From positions 19,035-83,034 of the IMG/VR virus record IMGVR_UViG_3300025154_000068: 64,000 nt of DNA; one strand, written 5' to 3'. Under the pieces are notes generated by a model. It was not told where the DNA came from, searched no databases, and saw only the letters and a list, made by a program, of their open reading frames with translations. The stretch comes from a virus. Of this stretch, positions 19,028 through 38,936 are shown in pieces (position 1 is the first letter of the stretch; each line of letters opens with the position of its first letter). A program made the translations under genes and the position numbers.

Positions 19028-19741
19028 TCAATTGAGCTTGAGCAATTCTTGAGTGTGAGTCTTTGCCGCATGACGAGCGAGCGAGCGACGCAAAGACGCG
19101 TCCTCCGCTTCCATCTCATCGAGTGCAAGAAAAACGTCTCCCAACCGATGGCGAGGAAACGACTCCCACCTATGTCCGTTGCCCACCTGAAACTGGACGC
19201 GGCCTCGCAATTCGTTGTCGACCCGGCGGAACGCCACAAGCCTGGACAGACGCTCGTCGGAGTTGCGGACAGCAGCAATGGTATTGACCCGATGTCGGAT
19301 CTTGACCGCCTCGCACTTTCGAAGCTGCGGGCTGTCCAGCTCGACGATTCGCTCCAAGAGCCCGGCGACTTGGGCGCGTAGAAGGTTCTCCGTGCGGTGC
19401 TTCACAACGAGGTAGACGTCGATGACCTCGTTCGTGATCTTGTACGCCGTCTTGGTTCGCGACTTGGCGATGACCTGGAGGGCTTCCCGCTCGGTCAGGT
19501 AGTAGGCCGGCACGACCCGTTCCTGTGGCCCTTTCCCTCGGAGATTCCCCGAGGCGACAGTTCTGTCGGCTCGTAAAACACCGGGCAATTCACCATCCGC
19601 CACGAGCCCCTCGATAACGCGTTGAACCTTCAACGGGTCCGCGTACCCGAGCCGCTCACCAAGTTCCACGTCCAGGATACGCCGCACTTCGGACGCGTCC
19701 ACCTTCACCAGATTCCAGCCGTTGACCGTGATCGATTGCAT
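19028..19741 (-). CDS. Antirepressor-like DNA-binding protein (Bro-N/Rha-type)
   Basis: DVELGERLGY...YYLTEREALQVIAKSRT; GAGGA RBS. Confidence 0.65.
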   Translation of the reverse strand: MQSITVNGWNLVKVDASEVRRILDVELGERLGYADPLKVQRVIEGLVADGELPGVLRADRTVASGNLRGKGPQERVVPAYYLTEREALQVIAKSRTKTAYKITNEVIDVYLVVKHRTENLLRAQVAGLLERIVELDSPQLRKCEAVKIRHRVNTIAAVRNSDERLSRLVAFRRVDNELRGRVQFQVGNGHRWESFPRHRLGDVFLALDEMEAEDASLRRSLARHAAKTHTQELLKLN

Positions 19742-32091: not shown

Positions 32092-32439
32092 TCAGTAGAT
32101 GGCGTCGGGGTCGGGCTCTTCTTCAGCCCAGGCCGCGTCTCTCGCGATGATCGCTACGGCATCCGCAGGGATGTCGGCGTCGGTCGGAGCGTATGTCGAG
32201 GTTTCGAGCTGGACTCCGACTCGCCGGGCATGCTGGTCGAGGAAGCGGTGCATGAGCCATGCGCTCAGCAGGTCGAGTGGGACATCGCCACCGGGCGCCA
32301 TTCCGACGTCGACCGGAGAGCCGAGCTCCACGCCCGCCCTGACCCGCTCAGCGAGAGGAGTCCGGCCGGTCACGAGGACGGAACCCTTGTCCGTCCAGCG
32401 CACCGTCGTGCCGTCCTCGAACTCCCACTTGTGGATCAC
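32092..32439 (-). CDS. Hypothetical protein, candidate immunity partner of MuF C-terminal domain
   Basis: GTGA overlap with MuF stop; followed by terminator. Confidence 0.55.
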   Translation of the reverse strand: MIHKWEFEDGTTVRWTDKGSVLVTGRTPLAERVRAGVELGSPVDVGMAPGGDVPLDLLSAWLMHRFLDQHARRVGVQLETSTYAPTDADIPADAVAIIARDAAWAEEEPDPDAIY

Positions 32440-34940
32440 GCGTAGCCTCCAAGACAACCGAGCACCCACCAGAAGTGCTCGCTGTCTTCACGGTAAGTCC
32501 AGAACGGGTCGGTCGCCACTTTTTCTGCTCCCATCGAGAGCAGTTCGGTCGCGTCGGCCTGGTAGATCTTCCCGCAGTAGGCGGAGAAGAACTTGTCGGG
32601 CTTGGCAACTTCGCTCCACCCGTACGGGATCCCCGTGAGCGCGCTCAGCGGCTTGGCAACCTCGCCGGCGGTCCGCTTTCCGAGGAATGCAACTGCGGCC
32701 TTATGCACCGAAGCGTTGAGCGTCTCGATGGCGTGCCCCCATTCGTGAATCAGGGACCGCAGGTCGTTGGCGTTGACCCGAGGCGGGGACATCCGGATAT
32801 CGCAGTAGGCCCGTCCGTTGACGAACCGGATCTGGGCCCGGCCGTCGAGCTTCTTGCTCATCATCGCGTCGTAGAACGCCTTGGCTCGATCGAGTCCAGG
32901 CATCTTGCGGGGCCGATTCGTGACCTTGGCTGTGCCCTTTGCTGAGTCGATGTTCGCGATGTGCCCAAGGATCGATGCGACTGCGTTGCCATCGTCGCCC
33001 TTGAGAAGCTCGCGCACGGACTTGTCCGGGTGGGTCTTGGCCGCTTCGACTACCGCTCTGACGCGATCGACGAGAGCCCCGGTCATCGGGCCGTCGTACT
33101 TGTCGAGGGCGTGCTTCTTGGCGATTGCCCCGACTTGCTTCGCGGTCATGTCGAGGCCCCGTTCCTGGGCCGCTCTCCCCCACGCCATCGCACGCGCAGC
33201 GTCGCCGTACTTCGAGAATTCCTTCTCCCAGTGCTCGACGGTGTGCTCAGGCTTCGGCCCCGCGCCCGACTTGGGCTTCGGCCTGGCTTCCGCCTTCTCG
33301 GGCTTCGGTGTCCGCTGAACCGGGCGCTTGTCGAGTCGCTTGAGCCTCGCCTCCAGCTCCTTGCGAATTTCCGGCGGATACTTCTTCGTGTCCGGCTTCC
33401 ACTCTGCAGCATCCGGAGTCAGACCGAACCCATCTTGCGACGGTTCCGTCGAGGGAGTCTTGGTGATGCCCTTGCGCTCGGCCTGTGACTTGCGGATCGA
33501 GCGAACTACACTGCGGCACCCAAAATGCCGAGGGGGGTAGTTCGTCTGCCACCAAGGGTGTTCGGCCGGAAGGATCGTTCCGTCGGCCTGCTCGCACATC
33601 AGCGTCACGCGATTGTCGAGGATCGCGTCGAATTGCCAGAAGGGCCGGACCTTCAGGAGCGCTGGCTCCGTCATCTGCTGGTGCCGACCTGCGTTGTACG
33701 CGAGTTGCACGTTCGTCCGGTAGATGGTATTACCTGTGTACAGACCGTTGATGGTGAAGTAGCCGTGCGCGGTAGAGAGGTTGAACACATGTCCGCGAAA
33801 TGGAACGAAGCGACGCGAGGCAACGTGATCGAACTCTATATTTCTGGCCTCAGCATCAAGCGCGTTGCATTGGAGGTTGGCGCCTCCACTGGATGGGTAG
33901 CCTCCGTGATCTCCTCCGAGGGGCTCACACGATCGCTGCGCGATGCCAGAAGACTGCACTTCGCGCGAGGTGGCAGGCCCTCGCGAGAACGAACCGACCT
34001 GCCTAGAGAACAGATCGTTCAGCGATACGTCTCCGGCGAAAGCGCCAACAGTCTTTGCGGCGCGTTCGGTGTTCACCAGGATACCATCCGGCGCATCGTT
34101 GTGTCTACGGGACTCCACTGGCGCAGCGTCGCAGAAGCCGCAACGCTTCGTGACCACGATCAGATGGCCGCACGCGGCGCAGAATCTAGGAGTCGTAAGG
34201 TTGGCCGGTTCGAAGACGTGATCGCTGATTGGATCTCGCAGCGCGGCGAATTGCCCGAAGCTCAGGTTCCTTGCAGGACGCGCAACATCGACATCGCAAT
34301 TCCCCCCGTCGCCGTGGAAGTCGTCACTGCGTCCGTGAATCCGTTCAACGTTGCCTACCTGCGCAATCGCACCGAAGATCTGCGAGATGGTGGATGGTGG
34401 TGCTGTTACGTGATTATCTCCCAGCGTACCAAGGTGCTGTTGCCCACGGTAGCCGATCAGATCGTCGCCCTCGCGAAGTTGGCCCGCGGCAACCCATCCA
34501 CGGCGCGTGAGCATTGGGTGATTCGGGGTTGCGGAGAACTTGCGGCCCGACGCGGTGACGACCTCGACAAGGGCCCCCTCGAACCACCGTCGATGAGCTG
34601 CCCTTATCACCCCTCCGCTCACAAGGGTGTCCCCGGGTAGGCACTCCACCCGCCACGCCGGATTCACGACGCTCCCAGCCCAGGCATCGAGGAGCTGCTG
34701 ACCCACACGTTTCTTGAAGTCGTCCAGCGTCTCGCCGTTGGCAACGGCCCGGTCGAGAGCGAGCAGGACATCTCGAATCACGTCGGCTTGGGCCACGCCG
34801 GCCACGGTGAACGCCTTGCGCTGAGCCCGTTCGTCGAGCAGGTCCCAAACCTTCTTTCGGACCGGAGTTCGACCGAGCAGCCAAGACGCCGCGGGAGTGA
34901 ACTCCTCGACGTCGGTGGGTGCGGCCCAGGGTGCGTTCAC
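32436..34940 (-). CDS. MuF (SPP1 gp7-like) minor head protein with intein and C-terminal HExxH metallopeptidase-like domain
   Basis: AFTVAGV, TIYRTN..AYNAGR, HPWWQTNYPPRHFGCRS; LIHEWGHAIE...ELLSMG; GTG start overlaps portal stop. Confidence 0.88.
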   Translation of the reverse strand: MNAPWAAPTDVEEFTPAASWLLGRTPVRKKVWDLLDERAQRKAFTVAGVAQADVIRDVLLALDRAVANGETLDDFKKRVGQQLLDAWAGSVVNPAWRVECLPGDTLVSGGVIRAAHRRWFEGALVEVVTASGRKFSATPNHPMLTRRGWVAAGQLREGDDLIGYRGQQHLGTLGDNHVTAPPSTISQIFGAIAQVGNVERIHGRSDDFHGDGGNCDVDVARPARNLSFGQFAALRDPISDHVFEPANLTTPRFCAACGHLIVVTKRCGFCDAAPVESRRHNDAPDGILVNTERAAKTVGAFAGDVSLNDLFSRQVGSFSRGPATSREVQSSGIAQRSCEPLGGDHGGYPSSGGANLQCNALDAEARNIEFDHVASRRFVPFRGHVFNLSTAHGYFTINGLYTGNTIYRTNVQLAYNAGRHQQMTEPALLKVRPFWQFDAILDNRVTLMCEQADGTILPAEHPWWQTNYPPRHFGCRSVVRSIRKSQAERKGITKTPSTEPSQDGFGLTPDAAEWKPDTKKYPPEIRKELEARLKRLDKRPVQRTPKPEKAEARPKPKSGAGPKPEHTVEHWEKEFSKYGDAARAMAWGRAAQERGLDMTAKQVGAIAKKHALDKYDGPMTGALVDRVRAVVEAAKTHPDKSVRELLKGDDGNAVASILGHIANIDSAKGTAKVTNRPRKMPGLDRAKAFYDAMMSKKLDGRAQIRFVNGRAYCDIRMSPPRVNANDLRSLIHEWGHAIETLNASVHKAAVAFLGKRTAGEVAKPLSALTGIPYGWSEVAKPDKFFSAYCGKIYQADATELLSMGAEKVATDPFWTYREDSEHFWWVLGCLGGYA
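33729..34643 (-). mobile_element. Intein in MuF (305 aa; Cys1 ... Gly-Asn / Thr+1)
   Basis: CLPGDTLV block A, ATPNHPMLTRRGW block B, VFNLST..YFTINGLYTGN blocks F/G; removal restores WRVE-TIYRTN. Confidence 0.9.
33789..34640 (+). CDS. Antisense-nested HTH + PD-(D/E)xK/Vsr-like putative homing endonuclease (283 aa)
   Basis: GAGAGG RBS 8 nt before ATG; two HTH-like repeats; EDVIADW..NIDIAIPPVAVEV..LRDGGW; wholly inside intein. Confidence 0.75.
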   Translation: MSAKWNEATRGNVIELYISGLSIKRVALEVGASTGWVASVISSEGLTRSLRDARRLHFARGGRPSRERTDLPREQIVQRYVSGESANSLCGAFGVHQDTIRRIVVSTGLHWRSVAEAATLRDHDQMAARGAESRSRKVGRFEDVIADWISQRGELPEAQVPCRTRNIDIAIPPVAVEVVTASVNPFNVAYLRNRTEDLRDGGWWCCYVIISQRTKVLLPTVADQIVALAKLARGNPSTAREHWVIRGCGELAARRGDDLDKGPLEPPSMSCPYHPSAHKGVPG

Positions 34941-36799
34941 AGGTCCTCGACGACAGCGACGCGTCCCGCGAGCTCCGCCAAGATGGTCGCCTTGTGGGCG
35001 AGTTGCTCGAATGCGGCGTTGTCCTTGACCTGCCCATAGTGCTCGGCGAGCTGCGTCCGAAGACGCTCCGGCCAATCGTCCCCGTCCTCGAGGTCGTCGA
35101 TGAGCTCGAGCAGCTTCGCCACGTCGGGCTCGATGGCGCGGGCGGTCACCTGGGCAGCGTCGGTTGCGATGTCGTCAACGAACTGCTGGCCGTTGATGAC
35201 GCCGGACGCCTTGGCTGGGTCGTCGCCAGAGGCGAGGGTGATAGAGCGCGCCGACAGCTTCGCCTCAATGATGGGTCCGACGATGCGTGGCACTTCGGCT
35301 TGCAGCACCTGGTGGAGCCTTCGCTCAGTTTCCGCCATAGCGTCAGCGACAACCGCGTCCCAGACGGGACGCCGACGGCTCGCCTTGACGTCTTCCGCAT
35401 CGTCCTGTGGCTCTGCGTCGTCCCCTTCGTTCGACGCATCCTCGTCACCTCCGAACTGCGGCGGAACCGGCGCTGGCTCCGACTCCTCCCACTCTGCCCC
35501 TTCCTCAAGAGGCATCCCGAACGTCCGTGCGTACTCGTTCTTGTCCACCGGAGCGCCCAACCCGAGCCACTTCTTCAGCGCGTCAGCGGCCTTGTCCCAC
35601 GTGGTGGCGAGTGCTGCAGTGTCCGCCGGCGGTGTCGTGTCGCGCTTCGGCCAAGGGGCCTTGCGTCCATCGCCGAAGTTGAACGCCGCCCACCACCAGA
35701 TGAGCTGCGACCGAATCGTCGTGGCGCTGGTCTCGTCGTCGGCGCGGATGATGGCCGCCGCCACCGCCGAGTGCACCTGCGCAGCGGCGTAGCTCCCGCC
35801 CTGAACCTCGGTGGAGAGGTTCTGTCCGAGGATGCGAATCGCGATGGCCGCGTTGGCCATGTTGATCTGCGCCTGGAACGTCTCCCAGGTGTCGGCGACA
35901 GCTTCGACGAGCTTCAGATCGTAGCCTGGCGGCGTAACGATCGTTGTGTCCCGCCCGAGGTCGGAGATGTCGCTCGCGAGCTCGTCGCGGTGCTCCCTGG
36001 TCGACCCCTCGTCGGTCGGGAATCCGACGAGCGTGCCCTGCCCGTGGCGCTCCGAATAGCGCCCCCAGTCGTCCCGGCCGTACTCCTTCAGGAGCCACCA
36101 GCGCGATACTGACCGCCACGCTCCTCGCGCCCACGGACGCTTGCTGCCGTACGGCGTGTACAGCAGCCACGTTCCGTCACCGGGGGTGACCTCGAGCTCG
36201 GAGCCGTCCTTCTGCCGAGCGAACCACTTGCGCTTGTCCTGGTCGTACCGAAGCGACGATGGGTGGATGACGTCGAAGCCGGGAGTCCCGTCCTCCCGGT
36301 GGGGGATGAGTCGGATTCCGCTCGGCTGCTCGACGCGCTCCCACGACGCAATCCGACCGACGCCCACACCGAGGATGATGCCCCACTCCATCCACTCGGA
36401 GAGGACGTCCTCGGGGACCATGTCCCACCAGTCCTCCTCGAGCTCCTCGAGCGGGGCGTTGGTATCCTGCTTCGGCGGCTGGAACTCGAGAGGCAGCCCC
36501 AGCAAGCCCCGGACGCGCACCTCGCGCAGACACCCGCTCACTCGGTCGTCGGCGAGAATCTCATCGCACAGCAGAGCGGCAAGCCGGAGGTTGCCGGTGT
36601 CCGCCATCGCCTCCGCACGCTTGATGAGCGTGGGCGACCACTCGATTGACGACGAACGGACGGACGACTCGATGAACGGCGCAGGTTTCGGGATGCGCGG
36701 CACAACAGTCGCAGCGAGCGACACGGCACTGGCGATAGCGAGCACACGCCTCCCCACTTGCGTGAGAGTCGTCGATGCTCTGGTTCGCCAGTGGGTCAT
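34937..36799 (-). CDS. Portal protein (Mu gp29/DUF935-like)
   Basis: WGRYSERHG, ILGQNLSTE..GSYAAAQVH. Confidence 0.9.
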   Translation of the reverse strand: MTHWRTRASTTLTQVGRRVLAIASAVSLAATVVPRIPKPAPFIESSVRSSSIEWSPTLIKRAEAMADTGNLRLAALLCDEILADDRVSGCLREVRVRGLLGLPLEFQPPKQDTNAPLEELEEDWWDMVPEDVLSEWMEWGIILGVGVGRIASWERVEQPSGIRLIPHREDGTPGFDVIHPSSLRYDQDKRKWFARQKDGSELEVTPGDGTWLLYTPYGSKRPWARGAWRSVSRWWLLKEYGRDDWGRYSERHGQGTLVGFPTDEGSTREHRDELASDISDLGRDTTIVTPPGYDLKLVEAVADTWETFQAQINMANAAIAIRILGQNLSTEVQGGSYAAAQVHSAVAAAIIRADDETSATTIRSQLIWWWAAFNFGDGRKAPWPKRDTTPPADTAALATTWDKAADALKKWLGLGAPVDKNEYARTFGMPLEEGAEWEESEPAPVPPQFGGDEDASNEGDDAEPQDDAEDVKASRRRPVWDAVVADAMAETERRLHQVLQAEVPRIVGPIIEAKLSARSITLASGDDPAKASGVINGQQFVDDIATDAAQVTARAIEPDVAKLLELIDDLEDGDDWPERLRTQLAEHYGQVKDNAAFEQLAHKATILAELAGRVAVVEDL

Positions 36800-36803
36800 T
36801 CGG

Positions 36804-38936
36804 TTACCGTCTGCTTCCGCCTCGCGCTGACCTGCTCGATGGTCGGCCCCGCCGGAGTCCGTCGTAGTCCTGGAGCTTCTTGTTCAGGTCGAGGGCAGTG
36901 ATGCCCCACACGAGAGCGTCGACCCTGTCTGGCGATGTCTCATCGTTCGCTGGGTCCCATCCGCACTGCTGGTCCTCGAGCTTCGGCAGCGTTCCCACGT
37001 GGTGGACTCTTCCCTTCTCGTAAAGGGTCGAGATCGGGTCTGCCCGGGTTGCCTTGCCCCGCGACGCGTGAACGGCCTTGAACGGCACACCCTGGCGCTC
37101 GGCTTGGACGTTGCGCTCGACAAGGTCTCCACCGTTGTTGACCTCGCCGATGATGTAGTCCGCTTCCCAGCGGTCGAAGGCCTCGAGAGCTCGCGCTGCC
37201 CATTGCGCTGGCGAGAAGACCCCGGAGAGGTCATCGAGAACGTAGGCGTGCCCGTCCTCGCCCAGGCCGACGACGATGATGCCGGTCTCGTTGCTCTTCG
37301 GGTTGGTCGATACCGCCGGGTCGATGGCGACGACCACCCGCCGCATGGGCGGGAGCGCGGGCGAGTACGACCCATCGTCATTGACCCTGAGTCGAAGGTC
37401 ATCAATCCGAGTGCGCTGCCAGAGCGCGTTCGGGTTGTCCTCGAGAATCTCGGCATCGATTTCCTGCCTGCCGAGCCTCGTCCCCTCGTACTCGGTGAGG
37501 ATGGAGGCGAAGAACGGCTTAGCGAGGTTCGACCGATTCTCGTAGGTCGAGCCCTTCGTAAGGGCGACATCCGCGCCTGCACGCTTGACGAGCTTCTTGA
37601 TCGTCGCGATCGGCCTGGGCGTCGTCGTGACGATGCCTTGCGGATTCGTTCCGAGCCGGAACCCGAACTGCAGCTGCGTCCACGCTTCCTGGAAGCGCCA
37701 GGCCGCAACTTCGTCCGCCCAAAACGTGTCGCAGTTGTGAACGAGAATCCCGTTGGCGAAGTACTCCGGCAGGCCCTCAACCGTGAGGTTGAACACCCGT
37801 CGAACGCCAACGTGCTCCCAGGTTGACGCAACGCTGACTGCAGTACCGTCCGCGCCTTGACACGAACTCTCGCCCGCAGTGCTCGCACTTCCGGGTGCTC
37901 CTTCTGGCCTCGTCCGCGCGCTTCTGTTGGCACGCAGGGCACGCCGATGTGAAGCCGCCCCGCTTCCTGGGGAATGGCTTGCCGCAGTCCGAACAATCGA
38001 TGTCGAACACCTCTCGTGACTCGACGTGCCTGTCGTAGTGCGTTCTGGGTGGCACGCACTCGAGGTTCTCGATCGCGTTGTTCGCCCGGTTGCCGTCCTT
38101 GTGATGGATGTGCCAACCAGGCGGGATCGGCCCGAGTTCCTGCTCCCAGATGACCCGGTGTTGGATGTAGTGGCGACCGTTCGCGTAGCCGATGACGTAT
38201 CCGTTCGCTCCAACGCGCCAACGAATACCCTCAAGCCCTTCGTCAGCTTGCCGAGTGGTACCCATTGTTCGCAAGATAAGACCGGATGATCGGCTGTGCC
38301 AGTGAGAGAAGCCCCGTTTGAGAAGCTGACGACGCCTACCTCGGCATCGTTCGAACCCGTTGCTACAACCGGTCGAAGACCATGTCTCGTTACGACCAAA
38401 TCGCCAACGGCAATGGCCTCGATCGGTCTGGGCCCCGCCTCGGTCTCGACAAGCGTTCCAGCGACGAAGCACTGCGGACCGCGCAGTCGATCGGGTCGGT
38501 CGGCCGACAGGATGGTGGCAACAGCCCCGTTGGGCCATGTCAGCCGCCGCTTCGATGGCTCGTAGTGCGGCTTGAACCACGGAGGCGAGATCGTCAGAAG
38601 TCCCGACTCGCCCTCGAGCATGACGTCGCGCGCATCCGCGGACGTCGCTGCGATCAGGGTGATTCGCTTGGACTCACCTGATTCAACCTTGCCTCGGATC
38701 CACTCGGCGCCAGTGCGGGTTTTCCCGAACCCGCGGCCCGCGAGGATGACCCAGATGACCCACGCCCACACGGGCGGGAGCTGCTTGTCGCGAGCCCAGA
38801 GACCTTGCCAGTCATACAGAAGCGTCCGAGCCGCTTCGTCCGGCAGCGTCGCTATCGCTTGCCGTACCTGGCTCGGACTCATCTGGCGGAGCAAGCTTCG
38901 CAATCGCTTCTGCGAGCTGGCTCCTTGCATCATCAA
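36804..38936 (-). CDS. terL: Terminase large subunit with intein (start may be ATG 38882)
   Basis: Walker A AGRGFGKT, Walker B FWADE, nuclease VAIDPA, SPDRVDAL. Confidence 0.95.
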   Translation of the reverse strand: MMMQGASSQKRLRSLLRQMSPSQVRQAIATLPDEAARTLLYDWQGLWARDKQLPPVWAWVIWVILAGRGFGKTRTGAEWIRGKVESGESKRITLIAATSADARDVMLEGESGLLTISPPWFKPHYEPSKRRLTWPNGAVATILSADRPDRLRGPQCFVAGTLVETEAGPRPIEAIAVGDLVVTRHGLRPVVATGSNDAEVGVVSFSNGASLTGTADHPVLSCEQWVPLGKLTKGLRVFVGALERTDTSSATRTVATTSNTGSSGSRNSGRSRLVGTSITRTATGRTTRSRTSSACHPERTTTGTSSHERCSTSIVRTAASHSPGSGAASHRRALRANRSARTRPEGAPGSASTAGESSCQGADGTAVSVASTWEHVGVRRVFNLTVEGLPEYFANGILVHNCDTFWADEVAAWRFQEAWTQLQFGFRLGTNPQGIVTTTPRPIATIKKLVKRAGADVALTKGSTYENRSNLAKPFFASILTEYEGTRLGRQEIDAEILEDNPNALWQRTRIDDLRLRVNDDGSYSPALPPMRRVVVAIDPAVSTNPKSNETGIIVVGLGEDGHAYVLDDLSGVFSPAQWAARALEAFDRWEADYIIGEVNNGGDLVERNVQAERQGVPFKAVHASRGKATRADPISTLYEKGRVHHVGTLPKLEDQQCGWDPANDETSPDRVDALVWGITALDLNKKLQDYDGLRRGRPSSRSARGGSRR
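37734..38471 (-). mobile_element. Intein in TerL (246 aa; Cys1 ... His-Asn / Cys+1)
   Basis: CFVAGTLV, GTADHPV, VFNLTVEGLPEYFANGILVHN; removal restores LRGPQ-CDTFWADE. Confidence 0.93.
37777..38265 (-). CDS. Frame-shifted nested HNH endonuclease with C-terminal Zn fingers (162 aa)
   Basis: QHRVIWEQELGPIPPGWHIHHKDGNRANNAIENLECV; four CxxC/CxxxC motifs; different frame from intein, wholly inside it. Confidence 0.85.
   Translation of the reverse strand: MGTTRQADEGLEGIRWRVGANGYVIGYANGRHYIQHRVIWEQELGPIPPGWHIHHKDGNRANNAIENLECVPPRTHYDRHVESREVFDIDCSDCGKPFPRKRGGFTSACPACQQKRADEARRSTRKCEHCGREFVSRRGRYCSQRCVNLGARWRSTGVQPHG

Follow-up and report, generated by a model that had tools for sequence, protein, structure and literature searches.

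A stretch of viral DNA of 64,000 nucleotides (the window; positions 19,035 to 83,034 of IMG/VR record IMGVR_UViG_3300025154_000068, an 83-kb virus record) encodes a large terminase (TerL) precursor interrupted by an intein, and the intein carries a complete HNH endonuclease gene in a shifted reading frame. The nested gene lies on the minus strand at 37777 to 38265, comprises 162 codons and a TGA stop, and is offset by +2 (equal to -1) relative to the TerL frame. We consider it highly probable that the locus is a composite selfish element, in which a mini-intein able to splice, located at the Walker-B region of TerL, is combined with a separate I-HmuI-like HNH gene at +2. During TerL translation the HNH DNA would yield a disordered linker of about 120 residues without stop codons, and the linker would leave with the intein by protein splicing to restore the terminase. 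The HNH protein would be a separate product, with ribosomes starting internally at the nested start codon (here ATG 38265) and stopping at the gene's own TGA in block F of the intein. The nuclease presumably nicks or cuts intein-free TerL alleles (LRGPQ|CDxFWADE), and repair would copy the whole element in. The fixed +2 register is probably the outcome of a filter, this being the stop-poorest reading of a coding sequence and one that hides the nuclease's own stop from the host frame. It is also likely that the locus belongs to an old family found across phyla, in which a free-standing I-HmuI-like HNH gene sits in phage-terminase mini-inteins at a fixed +2 offset set by the stop-poor frame. Such loci would be a still existing intermediate, standing between the pairing of a mini-intein with a free-standing endonuclease and the split inteins exemplified by a Vibrio phage. 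The nuclease family, HNH_3, is not among the out-of-frame endonucleases of a 2025 preprint (Gosselin, Arsenault and Gogarten, bioRxiv 10.1101/2025.01.02.630785), and annotation hides the nuclease in coding sequences (CDSs) named 'terminase', as in the phages TJE1 and phiCDHM19.

The host of the nested gene is a TerL precursor open reading frame (ORF) of 710 codons at 36804 to 38936 on the minus strand, as are all parts of the locus given below. It matches the Pfam families Terminase_6N (1.4e-22), Terminase_6C (2.9e-12) and Hint_2 (1.5e-9), as well as Intein_splicing. The N-extein (38472 to 38936) ends in DRPDRLRGPQ and is joined directly to the C-extein in the intein-free allele L085. The intein spans 738 bp (37734 to 38471), or 246 codons corresponding to TerL residues 156-401. 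It reads C1 (CFVAGTLVE...), block B TADHP, block F VFNLTVEG and block G GILVHN, followed by the C+1 residue of CDTFWADE, where the C-extein (36804 to 37733) begins with the Walker B motif of the ATPase. The intein is of class 1, with C1, C+1, the TxxH of block B and a C-terminal His-Asn (VHN) all present. C1, H62 of the TADH motif and N246 are invariant in the inteins of 34 relatives and T59 is nearly so, and the middle of the 34 aligned inteins has no meaningful protein consensus; about 15 of 52 loci are absent from this alignment, pattern-based boundary calls there having failed or been off. A split intein would show a broken host ORF and separate halves, and the TerL frame runs uninterrupted through the entire intein. 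Splicing would be expected because TerL is essential and the insert breaks the Walker-B region.

Structure prediction separates the intein frame into folded ends and an unfolded middle. AlphaFold2 assigned confidence scores (pLDDT) of mostly 93-98 to residues 1-88 and 209-246. The N-terminal splicing domain (residues 1-88, 38208 to 38471) is predicted to be all beta, with pLDDT of 95-98 over residues 1-80 and 74 at 81-90. The C-terminal splicing domain (residues 209-246, 37734 to 37847) holds blocks F and G and scores 93-98. Residues 89-208 (37848 to 38207) form a stop-free linker rich in S, T, R, A and G that is predicted to be disordered, with pLDDT of 42-52 and no secondary structure. A first-pass annotation made from the letters of the window had already described the intein middle as an S/T/R-rich, stop-free linker, which is what the translation displays. 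Foldseek matched the structured part to the mini-inteins gp41-1, Ssp DnaB and Mtu RecA with template modelling (TM) scores on the target of up to 0.87; the gp41-1 match (6qaz) has an E-value of 7.5e-7 and a target TM of 0.86. As modelled, the intein frame is a mini-intein fold with a disordered linker of about 120 residues.

The nested gene fills the space of that linker and extends into the folded domain on either side. Its ATG at 38265 straddles the codons CAA-TGG (Gln-Trp) after block B, and its TGA at 37777-37779 straddles GTT-GAG in block F (NLTVEG). The encoded protein matches Pfam HNH_3 with 66.1 bits (gathering cut-off 24.8, E 2e-18). Between 38186 and 37812, third codon positions of the HNH frame have a GC content of about 0.8, and the TerL frame takes over on either side. 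Both the placement of start and stop and the shift in codon-position bias bear out the first-pass annotation, whose sequence observations all proved correct and which had proposed an HNH nuclease with four Cys pairs, one base out of frame, in the usual endonuclease slot of an intein whose own frame stays open. The catalytic core (38026 to 38106) comprises H54, H55, N63, N67, H76 and H80; these six residues, together with L68, C91, C94 and C109, do not vary among 50 nested homologues. Downstream, the Cys pairs C91/C94 with C109/C112 and C127/C130 with C142/C146 make up two predicted zinc ribbons (37828 to 37995) that presumably bind DNA. The model shows strand pairs at 86-101 and 123-136 in these ribbons, and Pfam Zn_ribbon matches are weak. 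An AlphaFold2 model of the HNH protein, built from the 50-sequence alignment, has a mean pLDDT of 89.9 with the core above 90. It is ordered as an N-terminal sheet, the HNH core and two modules that each join a ribbon and a helix. The top match of the model in the PDB is I-HmuI (probability 1.0, E 1.9e-3, TM 0.44, 160 columns).

Both ends of the nested gene appear to code twice. The 5' overlap (38208 to 38265) places HNH codons 1-19 over the final strands of the N-terminal splicing domain. The 3' overlap (37777 to 37847) places the HNH C-terminus (YCSQRCVNLGARW...) over the intein sequence AVSVASTWEHVGVRRVFNLTV, with the TGA in block F. Overlap with structured intein thus amounts to about 19 codons at the 5' end and about 23 at the 3' end, with the disordered linker between them. 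Both readings of the 3' overlap are kept in the relatives L003, L005 and L008-L016.

The same layout recurs widely. Searching IMG/VR with the HNH protein gave the 80 nearest loci, 61 of them distinct. The HNH is nested at the identical offset, within an ORF of 600-1150 aa, in about 52 of the 61 (GC content 33-66%); eight of the others are free-standing and one, L080, is nested at the other offset. At L080 (534-2594) the host frame is off2 with 0 stops, and off1 holds 12. An HNH in frame with its host was found at none of the 80 loci and among none of the longer proteins (285-2000 aa), the latter being weak evidence. The homologue comparison suggested with the first-pass annotation therefore returned a conserved offset and none of the in-frame relatives that would have spoken for an artefact. 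Ten host ORFs were sampled; all ten have intein (Hint) domains and eight also match terminase domains. The relatives differ in insertion site, with two neighbouring positions in the Walker-B region and several within the nuclease domain. Two of the sampled TerL ORFs contain two inteins each (L032, 1689-5129, 1146 aa; L052, 60-3233, 1057 aa), one of which holds a nested HNH.

Phage genome records repeat the arrangement. A protein-level search located the HNH inside the annotated TerL of Tetrasphaera phage TJE1 and Rhodobacteraceae phage LS06-2018-MD07. In both, the HNH lies at +2 to an open TerL frame, its ATG is formed across an xxA-TGG codon pair and its stop falls in block F or just ahead of it. 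Clostridium phage phiCDHM19, with a GC content of 30%, has an identical layout. A DNA-level search of phage records with the intein gave a single match of 85 nt, to TJE1. The records of TJE1 (HQ225832, our L001), OP947163 (L002) and phiCDHM19 (LK985322, L150) annotate only a 'terminase large subunit' and leave the nested HNH ORF unannotated.

The frame-offset layout is real and not an artefact. The region 37500-38700 is present in groundwater and soil metagenomes of eight studies, and contigs from four runs of four studies span it, including both frame-switch points, with 0 indels and 0 mismatches, so the compensating indels that the first-pass annotation had asked to be checked are absent at the level of these contigs. 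Whether the open host frame could arise by chance was judged from synonymous-codon permutations of the HNH ORF. In this copy (63% GC), the host frame stays open in 21% of permutations. A single copy at 63% GC is therefore unremarkable, and the weight of evidence comes from the relatives. The host frame is free of stops in 52 of 52 nested relatives, and the third frame has 2-31 stops per ORF. An open host frame has a median chance of 0.05 per locus, which gives a joint value of about 1e-70 over the 52 relatives. Shuffling predicts 1-3 stops per HNH ORF in the host frame at the +2 offset versus 5-26 in the other register. Were the nuclease gene inserted in frame, its stop codon would cut TerL short, and an unrelated nuclease in Gordonia phage Keitabear occupies the same register. 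A filter on viable insertions would therefore suffice to explain the offset, and common descent within the HNH_3 family is likely also behind the fixed register.

Substitution patterns support purifying selection on the HNH frame. Across eight distinct pairs of relatives, substitutions in the HNH region fall mainly at the third position of HNH codons, which is the second position of host codons (16/27, 22/32 and 79/135 in example pairs). Outside the HNH region, substitutions in the same pairs fall at host position 3. Compared with its nearest relative L003, the window retains 65% identity as an HNH protein but 36% as an intein-frame protein over the same 360 nt. The splicing domains of these two loci are 51% (N-terminal) and 79% (C-terminal) identical.

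Alleles with and without the element were found among close relatives. A scan with the C-extein recovered a TerL gene (L085) whose C-extein is 96% identical in amino acids and whose nucleotide identity over TerL is about 90-93%, and which lacks exactly the 738 bp. Its junction reads ...LRGPQ|CDAFWADE..., and the DNA of the empty site is ...CGTGGCCCTCAA|TGCGACGCGTTTTGG... Likewise, L086 and L113 lack the intein that their relatives L087 and L088 carry. Presence and absence among near-identical TerL genes points to recent mobility, as judged from these comparisons. Directly upstream of the junction (38472-38508, compared with L085 around 1785), 10 of 37 nt differ, all at synonymous third positions, versus 32 of 428 nt in the rest of the N-extein (Fisher p = 7e-4). 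The cluster of synonymous changes could be a co-conversion tract or reflect divergence of the cleavage or target site. No such tract is discernible in the second pair, L087/L086, which is too diverged (80% nt). In two metagenome runs, further contigs match the window over just 32 nt (37732-37763) and diverge on either side. These 32 nt encode block G (ANGILVHN) and reach 2 nt into the Cys+1 codon; with nothing else in common, the contigs were rejected as intein-free alleles. Other inteins with near-identical block-G DNA (one mismatch) seem to co-occur in those communities.

The phylogeny of the nuclease follows the insertion site. In a maximum-likelihood tree of the HNH proteins, elements at ATPase sites and elements at nuclease sites separate with support of 94/86. 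The window and L003, which share a site, form a 98/90 clade within a 100/99 clade of ten ATPase-site HNHs. As the tree tracks the insertion site, the nuclease has stayed with its site and intein over long times. The HNH clade of the window uses two adjacent insertion sites, each directly before a Cys that serves as the +1 nucleophile. Comparison of L092-L095, L101 and L103 with L085 and L089-L091 shows empty TerL alleles of two kinds, Q-CDTFWADE or Q-xxxxW-CDE.

How the HNH frame is expressed bears on the first of several competing explanations. The first-pass annotation had noted the lack of a strong ribosome binding site at the ATG and a frame open upstream to 38580, and had left the choice between weak internal initiation and ribosomal frameshifting. 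No Shine-Dalgarno-like (SD) motif lies upstream of ATG 38265, a lack shared by about one third of the long ORFs in the window. Upstream of the ATG, about 135 codons of the HNH frame contain no stop (to 38673), with GTG 38580 as the first start codon there. Programmed -1 frameshifting would exploit this open frame, and would fit both an ATG without an SD and a +2 offset that equals a -1 shift. The product would be a fusion of N-extein, N-terminal intein domain and HNH ending at the block F TGA. We regard such a fusion as very unlikely, since at 64% GC an extended open frame upstream is no surprise and the X_XXY_YYZ slippery heptamer occurs nowhere in the TerL frame. Many relatives, notably those of low GC content, moreover have an HNH-frame stop 2-15 codons ahead of the start. 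The motifs GGAGG, AGGAG or AGGAGG stand 4-9 nt ahead of the nested start in 14 relatives, often directly behind an HNH-frame stop, and a 4-nt core is present in about 12 others. L003 has GTG at the codon corresponding to ATG 38265, with GGAGG 6 nt ahead. Because relatives carry an SD and a start and the TerL frame is without a slippery heptamer, internal initiation is favoured as the best-supported route, and it would probably be weak in this copy. The initiation half of the earlier suggestion is thereby retained and the frameshifting half loses ground.

Other explanations deny the nuclease a present role, assign it a different one, or question the layout itself. The locus could in principle descend from an in-frame HNH intein through two compensating frameshifts, leaving a mini-intein with a junk linker and a nuclease that is no longer made, and the absence of an SD in this copy would agree with this. 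A silent relic is nevertheless very unlikely, because register, own start and own stop are kept across lineages that are only 27-65% identical, the catalytic residues do not vary and substitutions are mostly synonymous in the HNH frame. The lack of any in-frame relative among the 80 nearest loci and the longer proteins and the presence/absence polymorphism in near-identical TerL genes argue in the same direction. A role in packaging is suggested by the location of the HNH in the packaging module and by the ability of HNH proteins adjoining terminase genes to act as packaging factors, which is also mentioned in PMC11855218. HNH proteins assist cos cleavage in HK97-like phages, and the nested protein might be a comparable terminase cofactor. 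This appears highly improbable given a TerL with a 96% identical C-extein that has neither intein nor HNH, which makes the HNH dispensable. In fold and modular organisation the protein also resembles the homing nickase I-HmuI, and the HNH phylogeny tracks the insertion site. That assembly or sequencing error displaced an HNH truly in frame has a practically negligible probability. The window is a metagenome-assembled viral contig, but the contigs of four studies agree across both switch points and the same offset recurs in more than 50 independent contigs and three phage genome records.

Several observations weigh against the reading of the locus as a composite mobile element with a separately made nuclease. 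The nested start of this copy lacks an SD-like motif, and its open host frame taken alone is compatible with chance (P = 0.21). The fold match to I-HmuI is borderline by its E-value (1.9e-3, with a TM of 0.44). The intein-free allele could reflect a precise loss instead of a gain. The analysis documents how the locus is built, its conservation, selective constraint in either frame, both folds and the polymorphism for the element; translation of the HNH frame, cleavage by its product, the cleavage target and protein splicing are inferred.

The general design of a nuclease gene out of frame within an intein is already known from Gosselin et al. (2025), and the novelty here is an HNH_3 nuclease in such a layout. 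In inteins of actinophages, these authors described an endonuclease VII-like nuclease 'in reading frame 3', stated there as previously unreported. One of their examples, Gordonia phage Keitabear (MN329677), shares with the window a contiguous TerL intein, a same-strand nuclease ORF between the splicing blocks at +2, an open host frame and an unstructured host-frame middle. The nuclease itself is different. The nested ORF of Keitabear matches Pfam Endonuclease_7 (1.1e-19), whereas that of the window is an HNH_3 protein with two zinc ribbons. The TerL family and the insertion site differ as well. Membership of the window's nested ORF in the endonuclease VII family was rejected, as Endonuclease_7 (IPR004211 / PF02945) gave no match even at E <= 10 and BLASTP against the Keitabear ORF gave E = 1.3. 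The HNH_3 group is much larger than the Keitabear type, covers GC contents of 30-66% and extends well beyond actinophages.

Other known systems share single features with the locus. The ShiLan domain (Arsenault et al., Genes 2025, PMC11855218), from the group behind the 2025 preprint, is an insertion, with an HNH out of frame, in the DNA methylase of a mycobacteriophage. As in the window, the HNH lies in an alternative frame of the insertion, the host ORF remains open and there is no obvious ribosome binding site; the authors discussed initiation without an SD. The ShiLan insertion has no splicing domains and is thought to stay in the host protein, whereas the window has an entire intein, expected to remove itself by splicing. 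Fractured genes with split inteins and a free-standing endonuclease gene between the halves were described by Dassa et al. (NAR 2009, PMC2677866). There too, a free-standing homing-endonuclease gene fills the endonuclease slot of the intein, but the window has an unbroken host frame and a contiguous intein, predicted to splice in cis. A homologous HNH at the same +2 register occurs in Vibrio phage 1.245.O (L151, NC_055736, 1899-3460), with several TerL-frame stops in the HNH region. The C-terminal part of the intein and the C-extein are annotated in that phage as a separate 'hint domain protein', and the locus looks like a split intein in a fractured TerL of the Dassa 2009 type.

The closest structural analogue of the nuclease, I-HmuI of Bacillus phage SPO1 (PDB 1U3E), likewise combines an N-terminal beta sheet, an HNH core and an extended C-terminal DNA-binding region. 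I-HmuI belongs to a group I intron and has a helix-turn-helix at its C-terminus, unlike the HNH of the window, which resides in an intein, has two zinc ribbons at that end and is 18% identical. Overlapping, separately read endonuclease ORFs also exist in the cyanobacterial dnaX intein, which has an antisense LAGLIDADG homing endonuclease (bioRxiv 10.64898/2026.09.14.751524, again from that group), an arrangement that Gorbalenya is reported to have described already in 1998. The dnaX case differs in its use of the opposite strand and in its nuclease family. A full-text literature search, judged from listings, yielded no overlapping or out-of-frame endonuclease in an intein beyond the papers named here.

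The layout supports a 'splicing first' order of events: mini-inteins are invaded by endonuclease genes that stand on their own, and gene and intein may afterwards fuse, or the intein may become split. A single nuclease family provides all three states here: TerL without an intein, a contiguous intein with the nuclease overprinted, and what looks like a split intein. The locus also provides a clear natural case of overprinting in a phage. Some 40 codons at its ends face constraint in two frames, and about 120 more in one frame with the other merely kept free of stops. For genome annotation, a nuclease inside the 'terminase' CDS of published phage genomes escapes gene callers. As potential tools, the element offers a compact mini-intein and a candidate site-specific HNH nickase. 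The interest lies mainly with specialists on inteins and overlapping genes, as the locus does not constitute a new category.

The window contains a second intein outside the terminase gene. A MuF-like ORF at 32436-35075 on the minus strand carries intein motifs from CLPGDTLVSGG to NGLYTGN|T. An ORF of 371 aa on the plus strand (33525-34640) runs antisense across this intein, with HTH_28, HTH_23 and HTH_58 as its only Pfam matches. Gordonia DE1 phages such as Keitabear combine a TerL intein containing an out-of-frame nuclease with a MuF intein containing an antisense VSR-like nuclease, and the window seems alike.

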